32,000 nt of DNA from Xylanibacter ruminicola 23 (GTDB lineage: Bacteria; Bacteroidota; Bacteroidia; Bacteroidales; Bacteroidaceae). Shown piece by piece: positions 17,896-25,509 of the stretch. Under the pieces are notes generated by a model. That model had not been told where the DNA came from. It worked only from the letters and a program-made list of their open reading frames with translations, and ran no database searches. The first letter of the stretch is position 1. Every line of letters begins with the position of its first letter. A program made the position numbers and the translations under genes. The stretch is taken from contig NC_014033.1 of NCBI RefSeq assembly GCF_000025925.1, positions 660,001 to 692,000 of the forward strand, read 5' to 3'.

Positions 17896-18019
17896 GCAAT
17901 AATCTCCATATCATCCTAATATTTTCGCCATAAAGTTTTGAACTTCCTACTTTTTTATTTTCTTTTGTCGGTGAACTTGTCTCAGTCTTCTTAAGAGATG
18001 ACTGCAGTCCTGATACTAA

Positions 18020-18055
18020 ATGACTCGAGTCCTTCCTAAGGAGGACTCGAGTCAT
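18020..18055 (-). terminator. 36-nt near-perfect palindrome (14-bp perfect stem); possible terminator of the 143-aa gene
   Basis: atgactcgagtcct ... aggactcgagtcat. There is only a weak T-run after it on the minus strand. Confidence 0.4.
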
Positions 18056-18079
18056 CAATAAGGAGGACTGGAGCGGGGA

Positions 18080-18511
18080 TTAATCGTTCCAGTTCAGTTT
18101 CTCTACATAAGCATCAAACTTTAGCTCTTCGTGGCCGATGGCTTTAAGGGCATCTTCAATTTGCTTGATATCGCTGGGTGAACAGAGTTGGGCACCCTTG
18201 CGACGTTCGAAGTAAGGATTACGACCAAACTTGCCCTGCAGTCGATACATAAACGTCTGGTACTCATCGGGTAGCATCTTCTTCTGCATGTTCTTAAAGC
18301 CTTTTCCATAAACCTGAGGCTTATCATCGCGATAGTATTCGCAACCTTCGCCAGTTTGGGTTAGCTGTGGATTCAGAATTGTTACTGCTGTCAGGTTGCT
18401 AGGCAAGTTCTGCATAGCCAACTGGCGCAAACAGTGGTCAGCCATCTTGCAATCTGCCTTGATGCAATGCAGATAGCAGCCAGGAACTTCATCGTAATTA
18501 ATCTTGCTCAT
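18080..18511 (-). CDS. Cys-rich hypothetical protein of Bacteroidales mobile elements
   Basis: The start is moved to the ATG giving MSKINYDEVPGCYLHCIKADCKMADHC (a cluster of 4 Cys). The track's GTG start at 18544 lies inside a repeat motif. The protein is adjacent to the VirE-like gene. Confidence 0.6.
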   Translation of the reverse strand: MSKINYDEVPGCYLHCIKADCKMADHCLRQLAMQNLPSNLTAVTILNPQLTQTGEGCEYYRDDKPQVYGKGFKNMQKKMLPDEYQTFMYRLQGKFGRNPYFERRKGAQLCSPSDIKQIEDALKAIGHEELKFDAYVEKLNWND

Positions 18512-18533
18512 AAATAGTTTTGTTATTTTTGTT

Positions 18534-18635
18534 AAACCTCTCACTCAAATACACTGAAAGTCGCATCTGTAAAGGAGTTGAGGCTTATGAGAGGTTTGTG
18601 TAACCTCTCACTATACCTCTCACTCAACCTCTCAC
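18534..18635. repeat. Left array of the GTGAGAGGTT motif (5 copies, including one hairpin pair)
   Basis: AACCTCTCAC at 18534, 18602 and 18626. ACCTCTCAC at 18615. The opposite-orientation TGAGAGGTT at 18588 forms a 9-bp stem with the 18602 copy. Confidence 0.85.
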
Positions 18636-18646
18636 TTTTTTCATCG

Positions 18647-19858
18647 TCATGCTGCATCAACAGGCACCACATTGTAGTATTTTACATGTCCGCGCTCAGT
18701 ATGCTCAAAGCCCAGATCTTTCATCGCCAATCCCAGATGCACCTTGGTGCTAACGGTCTTTTTAAGCGAAGGATACTCCTTGCTAATCAACTCCAGCATC
18801 TGCGTGCAGTTCATTGCTTTTACCTTCTCGCCTTCGTTAGGTTTGCGGAAACATGCCTCAATAATCTCTGTAATGTCCTTTTCGTCGGTATAGTTCTGGT
18901 TCAGCTCCTGAATACGTGCCACCTGCTCGTTGGTAAACCAGTAAGGTGCCTTCAACTCGTTCACCTCATACACCAACTGAGCATATAGCTGCTCGTAATC
19001 AATCTCACCAGCATTGTCGATATACTGCCCATCAGGAATCTCAATACAGATGAATCGACGACTACCTGTTACATCCGACAAGGGATGGGGATTGTTGGTA
19101 GTGGCCACGAACGATGCATAACGAGGGCGATCCTGCTGCGAACTGCCATAAATAGTACGTCCGTTAACCTTGATTTTCGAGAGCGTCTGCTTCAAGGCCG
19201 CCTGCTGACTGGGGCGGATGGCATCCAACTCGTCTAGGTTCACCAGCAGGTTGTTAGTCAAGGCCATCTCCTTATCGAACTTGTTTGATAGGTTCAGATG
19301 GTCGAGATAATACTCCTGTAGTTCAGGAGGCAGCAAGCGCGCTATGAAGGTTGATTTGCCACAGCCCTGTGAACCAATCAACGTGGGCACACTCTCGTTG
19401 GCGTGCAGCTTATCCTTCTGCAACCAATGCGCCACAGCCGAGCGGAACCAGATAATCAGGAAGTCCAACTGCTCGCTGCTAATGCCAGGCAAGCGGCTGA
19501 ACAACTTGGCCAGATGATTCTGCCCGTCCCATTTGGGCAGTTGCGATAGAAACTCGCTGATAGGATTGTACACGGGCGTTGCATCCGAGTAGATTACCTC
19601 CTGGATATCAGTCTTAGGACTGTTTTTGGTAATCTGCTCCTGCTTAGCCTTGCGAACGATGCTGTTCAGGGCTTCAGGTGTTAGCGTTCGCCAAACAGAC
19701 TGATTATCAGTCTGTTTGGTAGTCAAGATTAGATACTCTACCTTACCGTTGAGAATGTTTCGACGGAACAGGTAATTGTCAGTAAGGAACTGCTCAACCG
19801 CGAGCGAGTTCTGCAGAGAGGCTCCTAGAGACTCTCCGTTAATTGTCATTTTATTCAT
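18647..19858 (-). CDS. VirE/VapE-family P-loop NTPase (primase/helicase-associated protein of mobile elements)
   Basis: 403 aa with Walker A GSQGCGKST and Walker B LLVNLDELD. The overall resemblance is to Bacteroidales virulence-associated-E / DUF3874-type proteins. Confidence 0.75.
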   Translation of the reverse strand: MNKMTINGESLGASLQNSLAVEQFLTDNYLFRRNILNGKVEYLILTTKQTDNQSVWRTLTPEALNSIVRKAKQEQITKNSPKTDIQEVIYSDATPVYNPISEFLSQLPKWDGQNHLAKLFSRLPGISSEQLDFLIIWFRSAVAHWLQKDKLHANESVPTLIGSQGCGKSTFIARLLPPELQEYYLDHLNLSNKFDKEMALTNNLLVNLDELDAIRPSQQAALKQTLSKIKVNGRTIYGSSQQDRPRYASFVATTNNPHPLSDVTGSRRFICIEIPDGQYIDNAGEIDYEQLYAQLVYEVNELKAPYWFTNEQVARIQELNQNYTDEKDITEIIEACFRKPNEGEKVKAMNCTQMLELISKEYPSLKKTVSTKVHLGLAMKDLGFEHTERGHVKYYNVVPVDAA

Positions 19859-19950
19859 AAGTTGTTATCAGTTTATAATTAATAATTTCTGTTATGTGCA
19901 CTTTTCATACTCACGTATGTCTTTGTGTACGGTTTTTGCTATTGCGCTGG

Positions 19951-19958
19951 CAAAGGTA
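19951..19958 (-). promoter_or_regulatory. -7 box (TACCTTTG) for the VirE-like gene
   Basis: Reverse complement of caaaggta, about 90 nt upstream of the ATG. Confidence 0.45.
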
Positions 19959-20038
19959 CAAAATTTAAAAGGCGGTTTCAAGTCTTTTGTGTTAAATTTT
20001 TGTTAAATTACCCAATTGTTAAAATCGAGTGAGAGGTT

Positions 20039-20139
20039 GAGTGAGAGGTTAGGTGAGAGGTTTGCCCAACCTCTCATGTCTCAAAATCCCAGTGTTTATG
20101 CACCTTTCGCCGCATTTGAGTGAGAGGTTGATATCTTGC
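20039..20139. repeat. Right array of the GTGAGAGGTT motif (5 copies); mirror image of 18534-18635
   Basis: GTGAGAGGTT at 20039, 20051, 20063 and 20130. The inverted AACCTCTCA at 20078 forms a hairpin with the 20063 copy. Confidence 0.85.
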
Positions 20140-20222
20140 CATTAAATGTGCGTGTGTTTCTGTAATGTTCTCCATAAAATCAAGTTTTCTGTCTAAAGTT
20201 TGGAACTTTCGGCTTTTTTATT

Positions 20223-20230
20223 TACTTTTG
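20223..20230 (+). promoter_or_regulatory. -7 box (TACTTTTG) for the MNT/HEPN pair
   Basis: TAnnTTTG match 21 nt upstream of the ATG at 20252. Confidence 0.45.
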
Positions 20231-20251
20231 CAAGCGAAATACATATTTGAT

Positions 20252-20545
20252 ATGGGAAAGGATGAATGTATCAAACTGCTGAAGAAGTATATGACTATAC
20301 TTAAAGAAAAGTATGGTATAACTTCTTTGTCTCTGTTTGGTTCTACTGCACGTGGAGAGCAAACGGAGCAGAGTGATATAGATCTGTTTGTAGATACGCA
20401 AACACCAAATCCTTTCTTGCTGCAGGATGCTAAAGAGTTCTTGGAAAAAGAAACAGGAACCTCCGTTGATATTATCCGCAATCATCAAAACCTTAACCCA
20501 CGATTAAAAAAACGTATCTTAAAAGATGGAATCTTTATCTTCTGA
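20252..20545 (+). CDS. Nucleotidyltransferase-domain antitoxin (MNT / MntA-like)
   Basis: The GSTARGEQTEQSDIDLFV motif (GSxxRG...DxD). The start is moved to the ATG at 20252, downstream of the promoter box. Confidence 0.85.
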   Translation: MGKDECIKLLKKYMTILKEKYGITSLSLFGSTARGEQTEQSDIDLFVDTQTPNPFLLQDAKEFLEKETGTSVDIIRNHQNLNPRLKKRILKDGIFIF

Positions 20546-20915
20546 AAGCAAGGGAATAGCATTAGATATTCTTGAAGACATTCTTTCGGCTATCGAGAGG
20601 CTTGAAGATCGTACAAAGGATGTGCAAACTATAGATGATTTTCTATGTTCGTCTTCTGGTATGGTATTGCTTGATGCTACATGTATGCTGCTGATAGCAA
20701 TAGGCGAGAGTCTTAAGAATCTTGATAAGACTACAGACGGTAAACTTCTTCCTACATATCCTTCTATTCCTTGGAAAAACGTGAAAGGTATGAGGGATAT
20801 TATTGCTCATCATTATTTCGATGTTGATGCATCCCAAATCCTATGGATAATCAAGAATGAGATTGCTCCATTAAAGACCGCTATCCAGTTCTTTATTGAT
20901 GAGTTGAAGAAATAA
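20526..20915 (+). CDS. HEPN-domain toxin (DUF86 / HepT-like)
   Basis: The GMRDIIAHHY motif (Rx4H), a 20-nt overlap with the MNT gene, and 129 aa. Confidence 0.85.
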   Translation: MESLSSESKGIALDILEDILSAIERLEDRTKDVQTIDDFLCSSSGMVLLDATCMLLIAIGESLKNLDKTTDGKLLPTYPSIPWKNVKGMRDIIAHHYFDVDASQILWIIKNEIAPLKTAIQFFIDELKK

Positions 20916-21143
20916 CTTTGGAACCAAATTCCTTCCGCCGAAATGGTAGAGTAGCACCGTAATCGGTTTAGCAAATCATTTCTGCGTTTTTTTTGAGACG
21001 TTTATCCTGTATCATTATCGCAAAGCTGTCACTTTATTTTTGGATGAGGCTAGATAATCAACTTTAAAACTCTTTTTTATTAAAAACAATATATATTCGA
21101 AAATAGCGTTATTTTACAAAATATAAAACAAGTAAAAATGTAA

Positions 21144-22784
21144 CTAAACTTCTTTAGATAGTAATTCTTTGGTCAGAATTTCATCAATTCGGTCTAAGTC
21201 CCAATATGGAATTTCAATAAGTCGAATGTCGTTGTCTTTGCTGTATTTACGTAGATAACGGTCGCGATGTTGTTGAACGGTGAAGTTACGGATACGACCT
21301 TTATAATAAAAGTCAATGTCTTCATAATGCTGCTCACCGTGAAATTCTATTATAATATTATGGCCATTGTAGCTTGGCAACCAAAAGTCGGCAGAGAGAT
21401 ACTGCAATGGCAGCGTGGGGTCGTTATTGGGGATAGGCTGTTCTTGGATGAATTCGATAATGTCGTGTTTCTGCAACCAACGACGTACCTCTGCTTCGCC
21501 CATAGACTCTTTAAACTCTGCAGCACAAAGGGGGCATGAACCATTGACGGTTCGTAAATTGTTGTCAGGAGTAGTTTGAAACCAATGGTCATGTATGCAG
21601 CATCGAATCCAAATTAGGCTGTCATTGTTCACATAATCCTCATGGGCACGACAATAATCATAGCGATTTTTTCCGTACTTTGCTTCGCATTGGGCAATCC
21701 ACTCATCGCATCGTTGTAATGGCGGTTTTTTGTTGGGATAGTTGGCGCACTTGGGACATCCACATCCTTGACTTACATGGACGTCATAGCGCTGTTTCTG
21801 TAGTCCATGCTCCTTACAGATATAGTGTATGTAGTCTGCCTTCGTTCTTGGCGGGACACCTACGTATTGGAATTTGTCGCCATGAACTGCTTGCGCATTC
21901 TTTATCCAGTCGGCAGGCCAGAATTTTCCATTGCAGTAGTCGCAACCCTTACCATCGAGCCACCATTTTGCATCATGTATTATCTTACCGTGCTTGGCAC
22001 AAGTGACGCTTATCTTAGTATGCACAGAAACTTTACGCTTACGTTCAAAGGAGAAATCATTATTTCGATATATGATGTTTACACGTCGATAGAATTCTTT
22101 GGCGGTTAGTTTTGGATTATCCTTGGGGGCGGGTATTCCACAGCATTTCCAGCAACCGTGAGGAGGTCGTTTATAGTCTCCTTTGCTTATACCAACAAGG
22201 AGTATTCTTGGTTTTATCTCAAAAATGCCATGGTCTCGACAAATCAAAGTCACATTTTTATCGTTGCCTTGATAGTCGACGAGTGAGGTATCTAACTGGT
22301 CTCCATACATGTTATGTACGCGCTCTATAAAGCGGGCTTCCTCAAAGCTCTTACCATGCCAATGTTGTAGGTAGGCTTCTTTTTCTCGTTTTTTAGCTTC
22401 TTTTGCAGCTTTTTCTGCGGCAATTTGCATTGGAGTCTTTGCTTTCCTAGATGATATGGCTTGTATTCTCCCTACACGACTATTCTTTTCACATAACTTG
22501 AGATATTTATTCCAATCTTTGCCGTAGTCTGTTTTGTGAGTTATCTCAGCCCTACATATAGGACAGCCTGTTGGCGTAAATGTACCATGTGGCTTCATTA
22601 TATGGTTTTGCGCCATAGCTACACGAAAATGATAGTCATGTTTGGGACAATATATGATTATCGGTTTTTTTCCGCCATCATATACACTCTCTGAATAGTC
22701 ATATCGGTTCCCCCATATCTCATGAGCCTGCTCAATATAACGAGCTAGAGACTTTGTGTTGTCTGGAATATTGCTATTTTTCAT
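21144..22784 (-). CDS. Protein with five tandem zinc-ribbon modules and a C-terminal Vsr-like / PD-(D/E)xK endonuclease domain (homing-endonuclease-like)
   Basis: Five repeats of the pattern (Y/H)G..(Y/F)DY...x...C..HG.x(10-25).GC..C. The C-terminus (EAEVRRWLQKHDI...ADFWLP...IIIEFHGEQHY...RLIEIPYWD) matches the phage/bacterial nuclease family with the IEYDGxQH core. Confidence 0.7.
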   Translation of the reverse strand: MKNSNIPDNTKSLARYIEQAHEIWGNRYDYSESVYDGGKKPIIIYCPKHDYHFRVAMAQNHIMKPHGTFTPTGCPICRAEITHKTDYGKDWNKYLKLCEKNSRVGRIQAISSRKAKTPMQIAAEKAAKEAKKREKEAYLQHWHGKSFEEARFIERVHNMYGDQLDTSLVDYQGNDKNVTLICRDHGIFEIKPRILLVGISKGDYKRPPHGCWKCCGIPAPKDNPKLTAKEFYRRVNIIYRNNDFSFERKRKVSVHTKISVTCAKHGKIIHDAKWWLDGKGCDYCNGKFWPADWIKNAQAVHGDKFQYVGVPPRTKADYIHYICKEHGLQKQRYDVHVSQGCGCPKCANYPNKKPPLQRCDEWIAQCEAKYGKNRYDYCRAHEDYVNNDSLIWIRCCIHDHWFQTTPDNNLRTVNGSCPLCAAEFKESMGEAEVRRWLQKHDIIEFIQEQPIPNNDPTLPLQYLSADFWLPSYNGHNIIIEFHGEQHYEDIDFYYKGRIRNFTVQQHRDRYLRKYSKDNDIRLIEIPYWDLDRIDEILTKELLSKEV

Positions 22785-22895
22785 ATCGACCTAGTCAGTG
22801 ATCATTATTTATTCATATAGCATCATCAAATAATTATCAGAATAATCCCTTGTTATTTCTCTAAACTTTAATTAGGCATAACCCAGTATTTTCTG

Positions 22896-22903
22896 CAAAT
22901 ATA
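22896..22903 (-). promoter_or_regulatory. -7 box (TATATTTG) for the 546-aa nuclease-like gene
   Basis: Reverse complement of caaatata, about 110 nt upstream of the ATG at 22784. Confidence 0.45.
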
Positions 22904-22975
22904 CGAATAATAATCGAATCTGCAAAATCTGCTGATATTTTTGGATAGATATTTGTAAATTTCAAAACAATTTTG

Positions 22976-22983
22976 TACTTTTG
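22976..22983 (+). promoter_or_regulatory. -7 box (TACTTTTG) with an upstream TTTG at 22952-22955; divergent promoter for the 139-aa gene
   Basis: TAnnTTTG plus a -33-like TTTG with a 20-nt spacer. It leaves a ~110-nt leader before the ATG at 23100. Confidence 0.5.
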
Positions 22984-23099
22984 CGCCCAGAATAAGCATC
23001 AAGAGTGGCATAATGCACACCAACCGGCCTACACAGAATCGTTGGCAGCGGTGGTAAAAGGATGCGAGTGAATGTTTAATCCACTAAAGATAAACGATT

Positions 23100-23519
23100 A
23101 TGGAAATCAAGAAGATTGAAAAGAGTGACTTTGTAATGTATCCACGTATGCAACATCGTGGGTTGGAGTTCAGGCATGTAGAACGTGATGCGTTTAAGGC
23201 AGAGTTGCGCCATGTTGAGGAACATGGTGACTATTGGCTGATTCATCAGCAGTCGAAGCCTCATGTTGTGGCCCACGTCCAATTACCCAAGACGGAAGCA
23301 GAGTTTGATAATATCCTTGGCTGGTGTTTGGGACAAAACCATTGGTGCGAGTACATTGAGGGGGATTTCTCTTTCCTCTGTGTTATAGCAGGCTTCAATG
23401 CTGCAGAACTCACTCCTAAATACCCAGACTTTATCAGCGAACGTGTTTATGCTCTTGGTGATGCTACTCGCTGGTGGTATGAGTATGGAAAGGATGTTCT
23501 GATACAAAAGACAACATAA
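23100..23519 (+). CDS. Hypothetical protein (139 aa)
   Basis: ORF with an ATG start behind its own promoter. No family is recognised. Confidence 0.55.
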   Translation: MEIKKIEKSDFVMYPRMQHRGLEFRHVERDAFKAELRHVEEHGDYWLIHQQSKPHVVAHVQLPKTEAEFDNILGWCLGQNHWCEYIEGDFSFLCVIAGFNAAELTPKYPDFISERVYALGDATRWWYEYGKDVLIQKTT

Positions 23520-23566
23520 GGATATCAGATTATTCTTTGAAAATGGCTATGATAAGATTTTTTTCG

Positions 23567-23574
23567 TATATTTG
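23567..23574 (+). promoter_or_regulatory. -7 box (TATATTTG) for the DUF4041/T5orf172 gene
   Basis: TAnnTTTG match 25 nt upstream of the ATG at 23600. Confidence 0.45.
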
Positions 23575-23599
23575 CAGCATCATTTAAAAGATTCTGATT

Positions 23600-25288
23600 A
23601 TGGCAATATTTGATTTTCTAAAATCCCACGAAGAAAAAGTAAACGAGAGAAAAGCAGAAATAGCAGCTTTGCAGCAACAAGTTGTTTCTTTACGTGACGA
23701 GGTGGCTTCTGAGGAGAAAGAAAAAGAAGAGTTAAGAAGTCAGATTGTTGAATTGAAGAATCTTGTTGTGGCTCAAAAGAATGAACTATATGATTTGCAA
23801 CAGGACAAAGAAAAAACAAAGAAGCAAGTTGATAGCCTTCATGAAAGATATGAAAAGTTGCATGCTTTGTTAACGAGATCAACCAGAAAATTAAATTGTA
23901 TGGAATCTTCTGATGAATTCTTGTTATTTGACGTTGGATCTCCATATTTGGTTGCGTTGGATGAAGTAGATTATGAAGAATTGTGTAAATATCACAATCT
24001 TAGAGAAGAAAATCATTCTTATTATGATAAGAAGAAGCAAAGAGAGGATGAATTACATGCCATAGAGCTGAAAATTGAAGATGCAAACAAAGAACTAACC
24101 AATCTTCGAGAGGAATTGGTAAAACAGCGTGATATTAATTATGCCTATGAAATAAACAATATTAAAGAACAAACTAGTGAATATATTCATGAATTGAATG
24201 ACATAAAAGCAGATATTAATAGTTATCTGAAAAATCATAAAGACAAGATTCGCTTAGAGGTAATACATGAAATATACCAAAGAGCAAATCTTTGTGAAGA
24301 TGAGGCTTTGAGAAATTTGCGAGAAACTATTGACGGTGTTAATATTGACCAGATACAACTTGCTTTGGATTTAAAGAAAATGTTGTTGAAACCTCCATAT
24401 AAAGTTAATCCACAGGAATGGACTTTTGCTGAAATATATTTGTGTAATTTGTTAAATGAATTTGCACAACTCAATATTGTTAAAATCATAAAAGAAATGA
24501 AAAACTCAGATTGGGATACGATTAAAGTCAAAATAGGTTCTCTTGTTAATATTTTAGAATTGCGTATGATTGGAACGGGATTTCGAATAGATCCATCATA
24601 TGGAAAGAATCTATTCAATTATATGGAAGCAAAGTATTTATATATACAAAAGCAACAGATTGAACGAGAAAAGGAGCGAGAAGAACGTGAGGCACAACGT
24701 GAATATGAGCGTGCTATAAAAAAGGCTCTAAAAGATGAAGAAAAGGCACAAGAGGCTCTTGAAAAGAAGAAAAGAGAAATGGCAGAAGCGCAGACTCAGG
24801 AAAAGATACAGAAATTGCAGGAACAGATAAAGGGACTGGAGAATGCTCTTGTTGAAGCTCGTGAACTAAGAGAGAGAGCAATGAGTATGGCACAACAAAC
24901 TAAGATAGGCTATGTTTATGTTATCTCTAATATAGGTTCTTTTGGAAAAGATGTCTATAAGATTGGAATGACTCGTCGATTAGACCCGATGGAGCGTATT
25001 ATGGAATTAAGTAACGCTAGCGTTCCATTCCCATTTGACGTACACACCTTTATATATAGTGAGGATGCACCAGCATTGGAGGCAGACTTACATAGAAGAT
25101 TCGATGCCAAGAAGGTTAACTCTATAAACTATCGCAAAGAATATTTCAATGTGACGTTAGATGAAATAAAAGCGGCATTGAAAGAGAAAGGAGTTGATGC
25201 AAACTTTGTAGACGAACCTGATGCATTCCAATACAGAGAAAGCCTTATGAAAAATCGCGATGGTATTCTCTCTACAATACAGCAGTGA
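23600..25288 (+). CDS. Coiled-coil DUF4041-type protein with a C-terminal T5orf172 / MUG113 (GIY-YIG-superfamily) domain
   Basis: The N-terminal and central regions are long E/K-rich heptad coiled coil. The C-terminus (GYVYVISNIGSFGKDVYKIGMTRRLDPMERIMELSNASVPFPFDVH...YFNVTLDEI) is the T5orf172 signature. Confidence 0.8.
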   Translation: MAIFDFLKSHEEKVNERKAEIAALQQQVVSLRDEVASEEKEKEELRSQIVELKNLVVAQKNELYDLQQDKEKTKKQVDSLHERYEKLHALLTRSTRKLNCMESSDEFLLFDVGSPYLVALDEVDYEELCKYHNLREENHSYYDKKKQREDELHAIELKIEDANKELTNLREELVKQRDINYAYEINNIKEQTSEYIHELNDIKADINSYLKNHKDKIRLEVIHEIYQRANLCEDEALRNLRETIDGVNIDQIQLALDLKKMLLKPPYKVNPQEWTFAEIYLCNLLNEFAQLNIVKIIKEMKNSDWDTIKVKIGSLVNILELRMIGTGFRIDPSYGKNLFNYMEAKYLYIQKQQIEREKEREEREAQREYERAIKKALKDEEKAQEALEKKKREMAEAQTQEKIQKLQEQIKGLENALVEARELRERAMSMAQQTKIGYVYVISNIGSFGKDVYKIGMTRRLDPMERIMELSNASVPFPFDVHTFIYSEDAPALEADLHRRFDAKKVNSINYRKEYFNVTLDEIKAALKEKGVDANFVDEPDAFQYRESLMKNRDGILSTIQQ

Positions 25289-25470
25289 AAAGTATAGATA
25301 TTAGTAGATGGCTATAGTTGGGTGAAGTTGATAGGGGATTTTCTTTGGACCTGGTGGCGGAAAGATTGTAATTATCGATAACGTCGTATATGGGAGTGCT
25401 GTAAATAAAGAATTGCTTGAAGCCAAATGGTTGACTGGTAGATACATTGAGAATTTCCCACAAGTTGTGG

Positions 25471-25492
25471 AAAAATGTGAGAATTAACTCAC
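25471..25492 (-). terminator. Weak hairpin plus U-run downstream of xpt
   Basis: On the minus strand: gtgag ttaatt ctcac, followed by attttt. The stem is only 5 bp. Confidence 0.3.
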
Positions 25493-25509
25493 GTCGCTTA
25501 CTATACCGT

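Follow-up and report, generated by a model that had tools for sequence, protein, structure and literature searches.

We analysed a 32,000-nt stretch of DNA from Xylanibacter ruminicola 23 (contig NC_014033.1, positions 660,001-692,000 of the forward strand; assembly GCF_000025925.1), hereafter the window. Our subject is a gene encoding a VapE-family superfamily 3 (SF3) ATPase and the two arrays of short repeats, or candidate iterons, on either side of it. The principal features, in window coordinates, are as follows.

18647-19858, minus strand: VapE-family SF3 ATPase gene, 403 aa (Pfam PF05272, PF19263 and PF12990)
18650-18853, minus strand: winged-helix-like region of the same protein (residues 336-403), predicted to be the iteron-specificity region
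18535-18635, minus strand: left (downstream) array, a mirror image of the upstream array, beginning 12 nt past the VapE stop codon
20029-20129, plus strand: right (upstream) array; homology with other loci begins exactly at its outer copy
18545-18586 and 20078-20119: conserved 42-nt spacers between the inverted and outer copies
18080-18511, minus strand: DUF6078 gene, 143 aa (Pfam PF19555), with four invariant cysteines

The arrays are made of the 10-mer GTGAGAGGTT. Allowing up to one mismatch, the window contains 11 matches to this sequence where 1.53 are expected, and none of 100 shuffled sequences reached 11. Ten of the 11 matches fall in two clusters, one either side of the VapE gene. In the left array, read on the minus strand, direct copies lie at 18626-18635, 18614-18623 and 18602-18611, an inverted copy lies at 18587-18596, and an outer copy at 18535-18544 ends the array 24 nt before the DUF6078 start codon. 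In the right array, read on the plus strand, the three direct copies occupy 20029-20038, 20041-20050 and 20053-20062; the inverted copy follows at 20068-20077 and the outer copy at 20120-20129. This last copy forms the 5' boundary of the conserved module. The two arrays share a single geometry, with direct copies at offsets 0, 12 and 24, the inverted copy at 39 and the outer copy at 91. Hence, they are true mirror images. In each, the inverted site opposes the three phased direct sites at a distance of 5 bp.

A previous sequence-only reading of this DNA had described arrays mirrored around a VirE-like gene. The identical geometry, and the confinement of nearly all matches to two clusters, support that description. 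The 16-bp match that it reported between the outer ends of the arrays is also present, at 18535-18550 and 20114-20129. The inner stretch of identity is real but measures 22 nt, not 21. Other details required correction. The right array, previously placed at 20039-20139, is at 20029-20129, so the earlier coordinates were off by 10. In both arrays 42 nt, and not about 37 nt, separate the inverted 10-mer from the outer one. Finally, the spacers had been called unrelated, but over 32 nt their outer halves show 81% complementarity, and both match a consensus found across the gene family.

The window protein has more than 7,000 scored relatives, the closest of which (96-100% identity) are in rumen Prevotella and Xylanibacter ruminicola. 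For comparison we used 80 loci (numbered with an L) encoding proteins with 63-97% identity, from rumen Prevotellaceae, obtained in a scan of species-representative genomes. This gave 81 loci with the window included, and a genome often carried two or three copies of the module. Motifs were sought in the flanks of each locus by unbiased discovery, and an array was called where there were at least two sites on each side and at least six in total. Arrays recurred at homologous VapE/DUF3874 genes; they were found on both sides in 60 of the 81 loci and were mirrored in 59 of those 60. No arrays were called in 74 shuffled flank pairs, or in 53 regions displaced by 2 kb. Direct copies were spaced by 11 bp in 82 cases and by 12 bp in 92.

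The motif itself differs between lineages. Arrays of GTGAGAGGTT with the same geometry occur at L001-L003, L009-L012, L015 and L024. Most other loci have two-sided arrays of a different 8-12-mer, for instance GTGAGGTGTT, GGGGTGAGTG, AAGTGAGGTA, GGTTAGGTGT or ATGTTAAGTC; further examples are GGGAGGTCTT, ATGAGGTTT, AGGTAGGTGT and TGTTATATGT. Complete-linkage clustering separated at least 19 motif classes between lineages, with a few doubtful merges (single linkage over-merged the classes), and the layout was kept throughout. Within the motif class of the window, iteron positions are 88-100% identical across loci, compared with 60-82% for the remaining array positions, in pairs whose genes have a synonymous divergence (dS) of 0.6-0.9. 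The sequence-only reading had taken the arrays for protein-binding sites and not a recent duplication. Selective conservation of the iterons, together with a motif that shifts while its geometry is kept, agrees with this.

Arrays are also found at more distant genes. On a human-gut scaffold (L083; MT838091.1, 1927-5055) a 698-aa gene of BT4734 type, encoding primase, VapE and DUF3874 domains, is accompanied by a divergently oriented DUF6078 gene, and the two genes together are bracketed by mirrored arrays of ATCTGCAAC. At L081, repeats of ATCGACACC follow directly past the stop codon at 12-bp spacing. The architecture would therefore predate the short 403-aa family, and the iteron layout seems to be general for VapE/DUF3874 genes of Bacteroidales.

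Which protein reads the motif? VapE is the only constant partner of the arrays, being present at all 81 loci. Overall similarity to the window protein does not track the motif. Thus, proteins of L009-L012 are 78-82% identical to that of the window and retain GTGAGAGGTT, yet L004-L008, whose proteins are 84-88% identical, use GTGAGGTGTT. Eight alignment columns distinguish the GTGAGAGGTT loci from the GTGAGGTGTT loci, and every one is in the C-terminal region, at residues 351, 352, 355, 359, 367, 369, 373 and 400. Across 59 loci, the correlation between motif similarity and sliding-window protein identity peaked at residues 376-400 (rho 0.45-0.49). It was about 0.3 at residues 336-375 and at most 0.26 before residue 336, and the pattern was alike after controlling for the rest of the protein. 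The C-terminal 68 residues predicted motif class in 64% of cases, against 53% for residues 1-335, although this nearest-neighbour comparison is noisy because a few class merges are doubtful. Taken together, these patterns in the alignments suggest that residues 336-403 set iteron specificity.

The adjacent 4-Cys protein, DUF6078, had been put forward as the factor for which the arrays are operators, and an unlinked host factor could be imagined in the same role. The downstream array does cover the DUF6078 upstream region, DUF6078 is repeatedly linked to VapE/DUF3874 genes (even at the distant L083), and the class-independent consensus of the spacers could be a host-factor site. However, DUF6078 is an accessory that the module can lack: 31 of the 81 loci have the gene and 34 of the 60 with clear arrays do not. 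Its invariant cysteines are Cys16, Cys21, Cys27 and Cys57. Only four of its columns separate motif classes; these are scattered, with no clustered specificity signature, and two are start-codon artefacts. A single host factor is also hard to reconcile with motif classes that differ within one genome. Hence, the operator proposal is not upheld for DUF6078, and we consider either factor a very unlikely owner of the sites. The structure model of DUF6078 had no significant match in the PDB (best E = 0.5). Neither PADLOC nor NCBIfam has a model for DUF6078 or VapE.

The 403-aa protein comprises an N-terminal domain, a core with Walker A and B motifs, and a C-terminal DUF3874 domain, with Pfam calls for VapE-like, DUF5906 and DUF3874. 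A Pfam scan did not find the BT4734-like archaeo-eukaryotic primase (AEP) domain PF08800, which is present in the L083 protein. The sole sequence match in the PDB is 7PDS, the Rep protein of Staphylococcus aureus pathogenicity island (SaPI) 1 (phmmer E = 5.2e-11, residues 64-276). Chains of 7PDS are also the best fold match of the AlphaFold model (Foldseek probability 1.0, E = 1.6e-7), followed by other D5/SF3 primase-helicases and the SaPIbov1 Rep (8TCH). In alignments of 60 and 82 sequences, residues G162, G165, G167, K168, T170, D209, E210, T254, N255, N256, R267 and R268 are invariant. The ratio of nonsynonymous to synonymous substitution rates (dN/dS) for VapE is 0.06-0.15. Because no variation occurs in the Walker A, Walker B or arginine motifs, and because of this low ratio, VapE is most likely an active ATPase and more than a DNA binder.

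The alignment behind the AlphaFold2 model was built from database proteins. In the model, region 336-403 has the order helix-strand-helix-helix-strand-strand; within it, over residues 347-399, a strand is followed by two helices and a beta-hairpin, and predicted local distance difference test (pLDDT) scores are 75-88. The residues that discriminate specificity are on the two helices and beside the wing. Comparison of the DUF3874 region with winged-helix proteins gave weak local fold matches only (E near 1). An antisense open reading frame of 136 aa (18578-18988, plus strand) overlaps the VapE 3' end and the array, and is open in 78 of the 81 loci. It has the same codon partition as VapE, being in the in-register antisense frame, and so is probably a shadow reading frame and not a gene.

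We think it probable, though well short of certain, that the arrays are iterons for the winged-helix-like DUF3874 domain of VapE, and that gene and arrays together make up a module of Rep-plus-origin type. The sequence-only reading had listed origin iterons served by the VirE/VapE-like NTPase as one of its options. We favour that option because of the C-terminal covariation and the homology to SaPI Rep helicases. The clustering, geometry and conservation of the sites, the covariation of motif and protein, the homology and the fold are observed; from them we infer binding and, beyond it, helicase loading and replication. The homology to SaPI1 Rep suggests that VapE would assemble at the iterons, open the neighbouring DNA and self-load as a hexameric helicase. 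Each array would be an origin-like unit consisting of three phased direct sites, an opposed site, a 42-bp spacer, a further site and an adjoining AT-rich tract. Given the mirror symmetry, a helicase loaded at one array would point the opposite way from a helicase loaded at the other. Alternatively, one array could be the origin and the other a pairing or control site. Transcription of VapE and DUF6078 may in addition respond to occupancy of the arrays.

Further features in and around the module are listed here.

19951-20028, minus strand: AT-rich tract (74% AT) with -7 box, containing ATTTTTGTTAAA; likely VapE promoter
19951-19958, minus strand: Bacteroidetes-type -7 box TACCTTTG
17983-18070, minus strand: long stem-loops after DUF6078, the 3' boundary of the module (-46.7 kcal/mol, z = -5.9)

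In 71 of 77 loci the sequence TAnnTTTG precedes the VapE start codon by 75-125 nt (about 100 nt). In the window the right array starts approximately 70 bp upstream of the -7 box. The upstream array therefore sits 5' of the core promoter and not on it. The AT-rich 12-mer ATTTTTGTTAAA adjoins both arrays (18525-18536 and 19996-20007), as a direct repeat and not a mirrored one, and in both places it is on the side facing the next gene start. Between the inverted and outer sites, 80 spacers from related loci yielded the consensus ..CC.cAA.CCCTtTGTacAT.GGc.TTTcAG, which is the same whatever the iteron class and has an imperfect dyad around TGTACA. The conserved spacer has the sequence CCCTTTGTACATCGG. 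The consensus may serve as a further binding site, recognised by a conserved portion of VapE or by a host factor, or as an outward promoter.

The main rival explanation is that the arrays are purely regulatory. VapE would bind them to control its own gene, DUF6078 and perhaps neighbouring genes, possibly by looping, with no part in replication. Such a role is favoured by the position of the upstream array, about 70 bp upstream of the conserved -7 box, and by that of the outermost downstream site, which precedes the DUF6078 start codon by 24 nt. The module is stable in the chromosome, without a mobile-element context, and iteron-binding Rep proteins commonly autoregulate. Conversely, the arrays do not overlap the core promoter, and the closest characterised homologue of VapE is a helicase-initiator. 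Strong purifying selection acts on the whole ATPase, with its Walker and arginine motifs invariant, and a simple repressor would have no need of this. We regard an exclusively regulatory role as unlikely, albeit worth serious consideration; it is compatible with the binding model and with the origin reading.

The stem-loop at 17983-18070 is a compound hairpin with GACTNNAGTC palindromes, and close relatives have compensatory CTCGAG/CTGGAG/CTGTAG changes. RNAalifold detected no family-wide RNA structure after DUF6078, the hairpin being kept in the close clade only. It is probably a transcription terminator, since distant loci have canonical terminators at the equivalent position.

The module has a core of 1.6 kb; counting the optional DUF6078 gene and the terminator brings it to about 2.15 kb. 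Conserved DNA begins at the outer site of the upstream array and ends past the DUF6078 terminator; at L010 it is bounded by outer sites on both sides. VapE (81 of 81 loci) and DUF6078 (31 of 81) are the only recurring genes. The 141 neighbouring proteins fall into 116 Pfam families. Among the 25 most frequent of these that were listed, each with five neighbours at most, there is no integrase or transposase, and no such family recurs. At L003, L012 and L024 the module is by itself, flanked by an amylase gene on one side and a GH53 gene on the other. Ordinary chromosomal genes (ligA, trmD, pheS, murB, trpS and others) fill the remainder of the window, with the exception of a low-GC segment at 20140-25500 that begins beside the right array.

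20140-25500: defence island, low GC, strain-specific, 5.3 kb, abutting the outer iteron
20165-20915: MNT (PADLOC PDC-S09) and HepT
21144-22784, minus strand: HNH/homing-endonuclease-like gene, 546 aa
Listed between the HNH-like gene and PD-Lambda-1: open reading frame of 139 aa
23600-25288: PD-Lambda-1 (T5orf172/MUG113) protein

In many strains a phosphoribosyltransferase gene abuts the array at the locus of the window (L001, and all 10 listed places of P0093, a VapE protein near-identical to that of the window). The defence island is inserted at this phosphoribosyltransferase/array junction. It is absent from L001 and from the P0093 places; L002 has an AbiEii/DUF6922 pair instead. MNT/HepT is missing from L089 and L090, where the breakpoint coincides with the outer iteron. 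At L088 (JAEEGG010035590.1, 1275-5336) the flanks are 96-97% identical to the window, while the module is 79% identical and of the GTGAGGTGTT class. There, the whole module is inverted, including DUF6078 and the terminator, and an AAA-type ATPase gene is added. On this comparison the locus appears to be a replacement hotspot, which homologous recombination in the flanks can explain. A clean empty site was not found for the locus; related metagenome loci carry a module or have a rearranged gene order.

These data bear on two explanations in which the arrays are recombination sites; the sequence-only reading had raised both, suggesting an invertible or mobile 1.6-kb cassette. In the first, the arrays are terminal inverted repeats of a small mobile element, resembling the multi-site ends of Tn7 or Mu and recognised by VapE or by a protein acting in trans. 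Sequence conservation stops exactly at the outer sites (on both sides in L010), indels in neighbouring DNA end at the outer iteron, and many unrelated chromosomal settings contain the unit, of which a genome can have several copies. The different, inverted module in the near-identical strain L088 could also be read in this way. However, VapE and DUF6078 contain no transposase, integrase or nuclease domain, and none is among the neighbour families listed. No target-site duplication was seen at the module junctions. Protein P0093 occurs identically on 19 contigs, and the 10 places listed all share one context; only diverged module copies occupy different loci. Orthologous positions are kept across species (L003, L012 and L024), and recombination between conserved flanks accounts for L088. 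A mobile element with the arrays as its ends is, in our judgement, improbable.

In the second, recombination between the mirrored arrays flips the VapE gene as a DNA switch. As inverted repeats, the arrays are 86% complementary over 50 nt and lie 1.39 kb apart. Against this, VapE is oriented alike relative to DUF6078 at each of the 28 loci with that gene downstream, and no recombinase is nearby, either in the Pfam scan or among the listed neighbour families. The promoter is inside the segment, so flipping it would not switch expression, and the L088 inversion spans an entire module of 79% identity, which is not an array-to-array flip. We give an invertible switch almost no weight. Thus, with constant orientation, no recurring recombinase or transposase nearby and P0093 at a single locus, the cassette proposal lacks support in both forms.

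Replicating elements were also considered directly. Matches in plasmid and phage databases had at most 40% identity (at most 35% for the best from plasmids) and were all of the 700-aa BT4734 type. A plasmid location suggested by pCACC737_3 (L168, NZ_CP059409.1) was rejected; this molecule carries gltX, rpsU and priA and is probably a chromosomal fragment. On it, a BT4734/BF3469 gene adjoins an HU-family gene. Candidate phage relatives were unverified virome scaffolds with ordinary bacterial genes. Metagenome contigs of 1.3-2.5 kb might have represented an excised or repeated unit, but the three inspected had arbitrary ends, as expected of assembly fragmentation.

Several observations count against the view that VapE and its arrays form a Rep-plus-origin module. 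The module has neither primase nor integrase, and it is not part of an integrative island of the kind that in SaPIs and other phage-inducible chromosomal islands (PICIs) also carries integrase, regulator, primase and packaging genes. No close relatives were found in plasmid and phage collections or in IMG/VR (scanned with a family profile), and identical VapE copies are stable at one chromosomal locus. Modules with the same motif reside at different loci of one genome, namely L002/L003 in Prevotella sp. P6B1, L015/L024 in RUG10713 and L011/L012 in UBA2809. Cross-talk or incompatibility would be predicted for independent iteron replicons, so this co-residence is awkward. The origin of a SaPI has an AT-rich centre, whereas the spacers here are 55-60% AT, against 51% for coding sequence. 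AT-rich DNA amid the iterons is absent, and the tracts of 74-87% AT adjoin the arrays and are not inside them; they overlap promoter or translation-start regions, whose AT content is high in any case. AT-rich spacers do occur in some other clades, such as L026 and L039. SaPIs have one origin, downstream of rep, and not two flanking arrays. Finally, the ATPase core of the AlphaFold2 model is of low confidence, and the covariation statistics are only partly corrected for phylogeny.

A more specific proposal is that the module is a domesticated origin, kept and fired in situ by the host chromosome, instead of a mobile-element remnant. We hold this to be a long shot. If true, arrays on induction would load outward-facing helicases and over-replicate the flanking DNA locally, which in the window is the defence island with PD-Lambda-1, the HNH-like nuclease and MNT/HepT. 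A genome could then have several devices for gene amplification or replication restart, each with its own motif.

The Rep-plus-iteron interpretation has wider consequences. DUF3874 gains a testable function, as the iteron-reading domain of VapE/BT4734-type helicases, which are abundant in gut and rumen Bacteroidales. The family would be a natural library of at least 19 matched pairs of protein and 10-bp site on a nearly constant scaffold. Such a library suits the study of a winged-helix recognition code, and could supply orthogonal DNA-binding and replicon parts for Bacteroidales, where genetic tools are scarce. Stand-alone Rep-plus-iteron units that lack integrase, primase and any plasmid or phage context, and that purifying selection maintains in chromosomes, are at odds with the usual assignment of such modules to mobile elements, and finding what these modules replicate or regulate could reveal a new chromosomal function.

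Several known systems resemble the module in part. The alpha protein of satellite phage P4 is an SF3-type helicase with a C-terminal winged-helix origin-binding domain that acts at ori and crr. The same short iteron is present at these two cis sites, which flank the gene region; both are needed, and looping between them has been reported. Alpha differs from the window protein in having a primase domain. Some 4.5 kb separates the P4 sites, which do not mirror each other as copies of a single composite element, and P4 is an autonomous replicon and satellite.

In the P1 incC/repA/incA and F ori2/repE/incC regions, binding sites for the Rep protein form arrays on both sides of the rep gene, phased at about one helical turn. 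In iteron plasmids of this type one array is the origin and the other controls copy number by pairing. The Rep proteins of these systems, however, are small initiators of winged-helix type; they lack a helicase and rely on DnaA and DnaB. Their genes lie on true plasmids, and the arrays are not mirror images. The ends of Tn7 and Mu likewise consist of several short binding sites, in inverted orientation at both ends of a discrete unit. Unlike these elements, the module has no transposase, target duplication or sign of recent movement.

Related in domain content are the BT4734/BF3469 proteins of Bacteroidales, which combine an AEP primase with VirE/VapE and DUF3874 domains (PMC11724360, PMC5862659). 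The VapE and DUF3874 domains are held in common with the window protein at 30-40% identity. The likeness extends to the flanking DNA, with a DUF6078 partner and mirrored arrays at the L083 member and a post-stop array at L081. The window protein differs in having no N-terminal AEP primase, at 403 aa compared with about 700 aa. In the literature searched we found no description of iterons for the BT4734/BF3469 family, or of mirrored arrays at VapE/DUF3874/DUF6078 genes.

The closest parallel is the Rep-ori system of SaPIs and PICIs. SaPI Reps are self-loading SF3 helicases that also serve as initiators through a C-terminal winged helix (PMC9371898). This winged helix binds iterons that lie immediately downstream of rep and point in opposite ways (PMC9371898). 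The window module likewise has an SF3 VapE-family ATPase, related to SaPI1 Rep1 7PDS in sequence (E = 5e-11) and fold (probability 1.0). Its predicted C-terminal specificity module is winged-helix-like in the model, and Rep and iterons would form element-specific pairs. Iterons occur directly past the rep stop codon (12 nt here), with copies in opposed orientations. Conversely, SaPI iterons are 5-6 bp long, are arranged in a single origin around an AT-rich centre, and belong to an island of about 15 kb with integrase, regulators, primase and packaging genes. The module of the window has 10-bp iterons at 11-12 bp phasing and a conserved spacer that is not AT-rich, and it is found in Bacteroidota. 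What is new is the combination of two mirror-image arrays, 10-bp iterons, a conserved non-AT-rich spacer and stand-alone residence in the chromosome.

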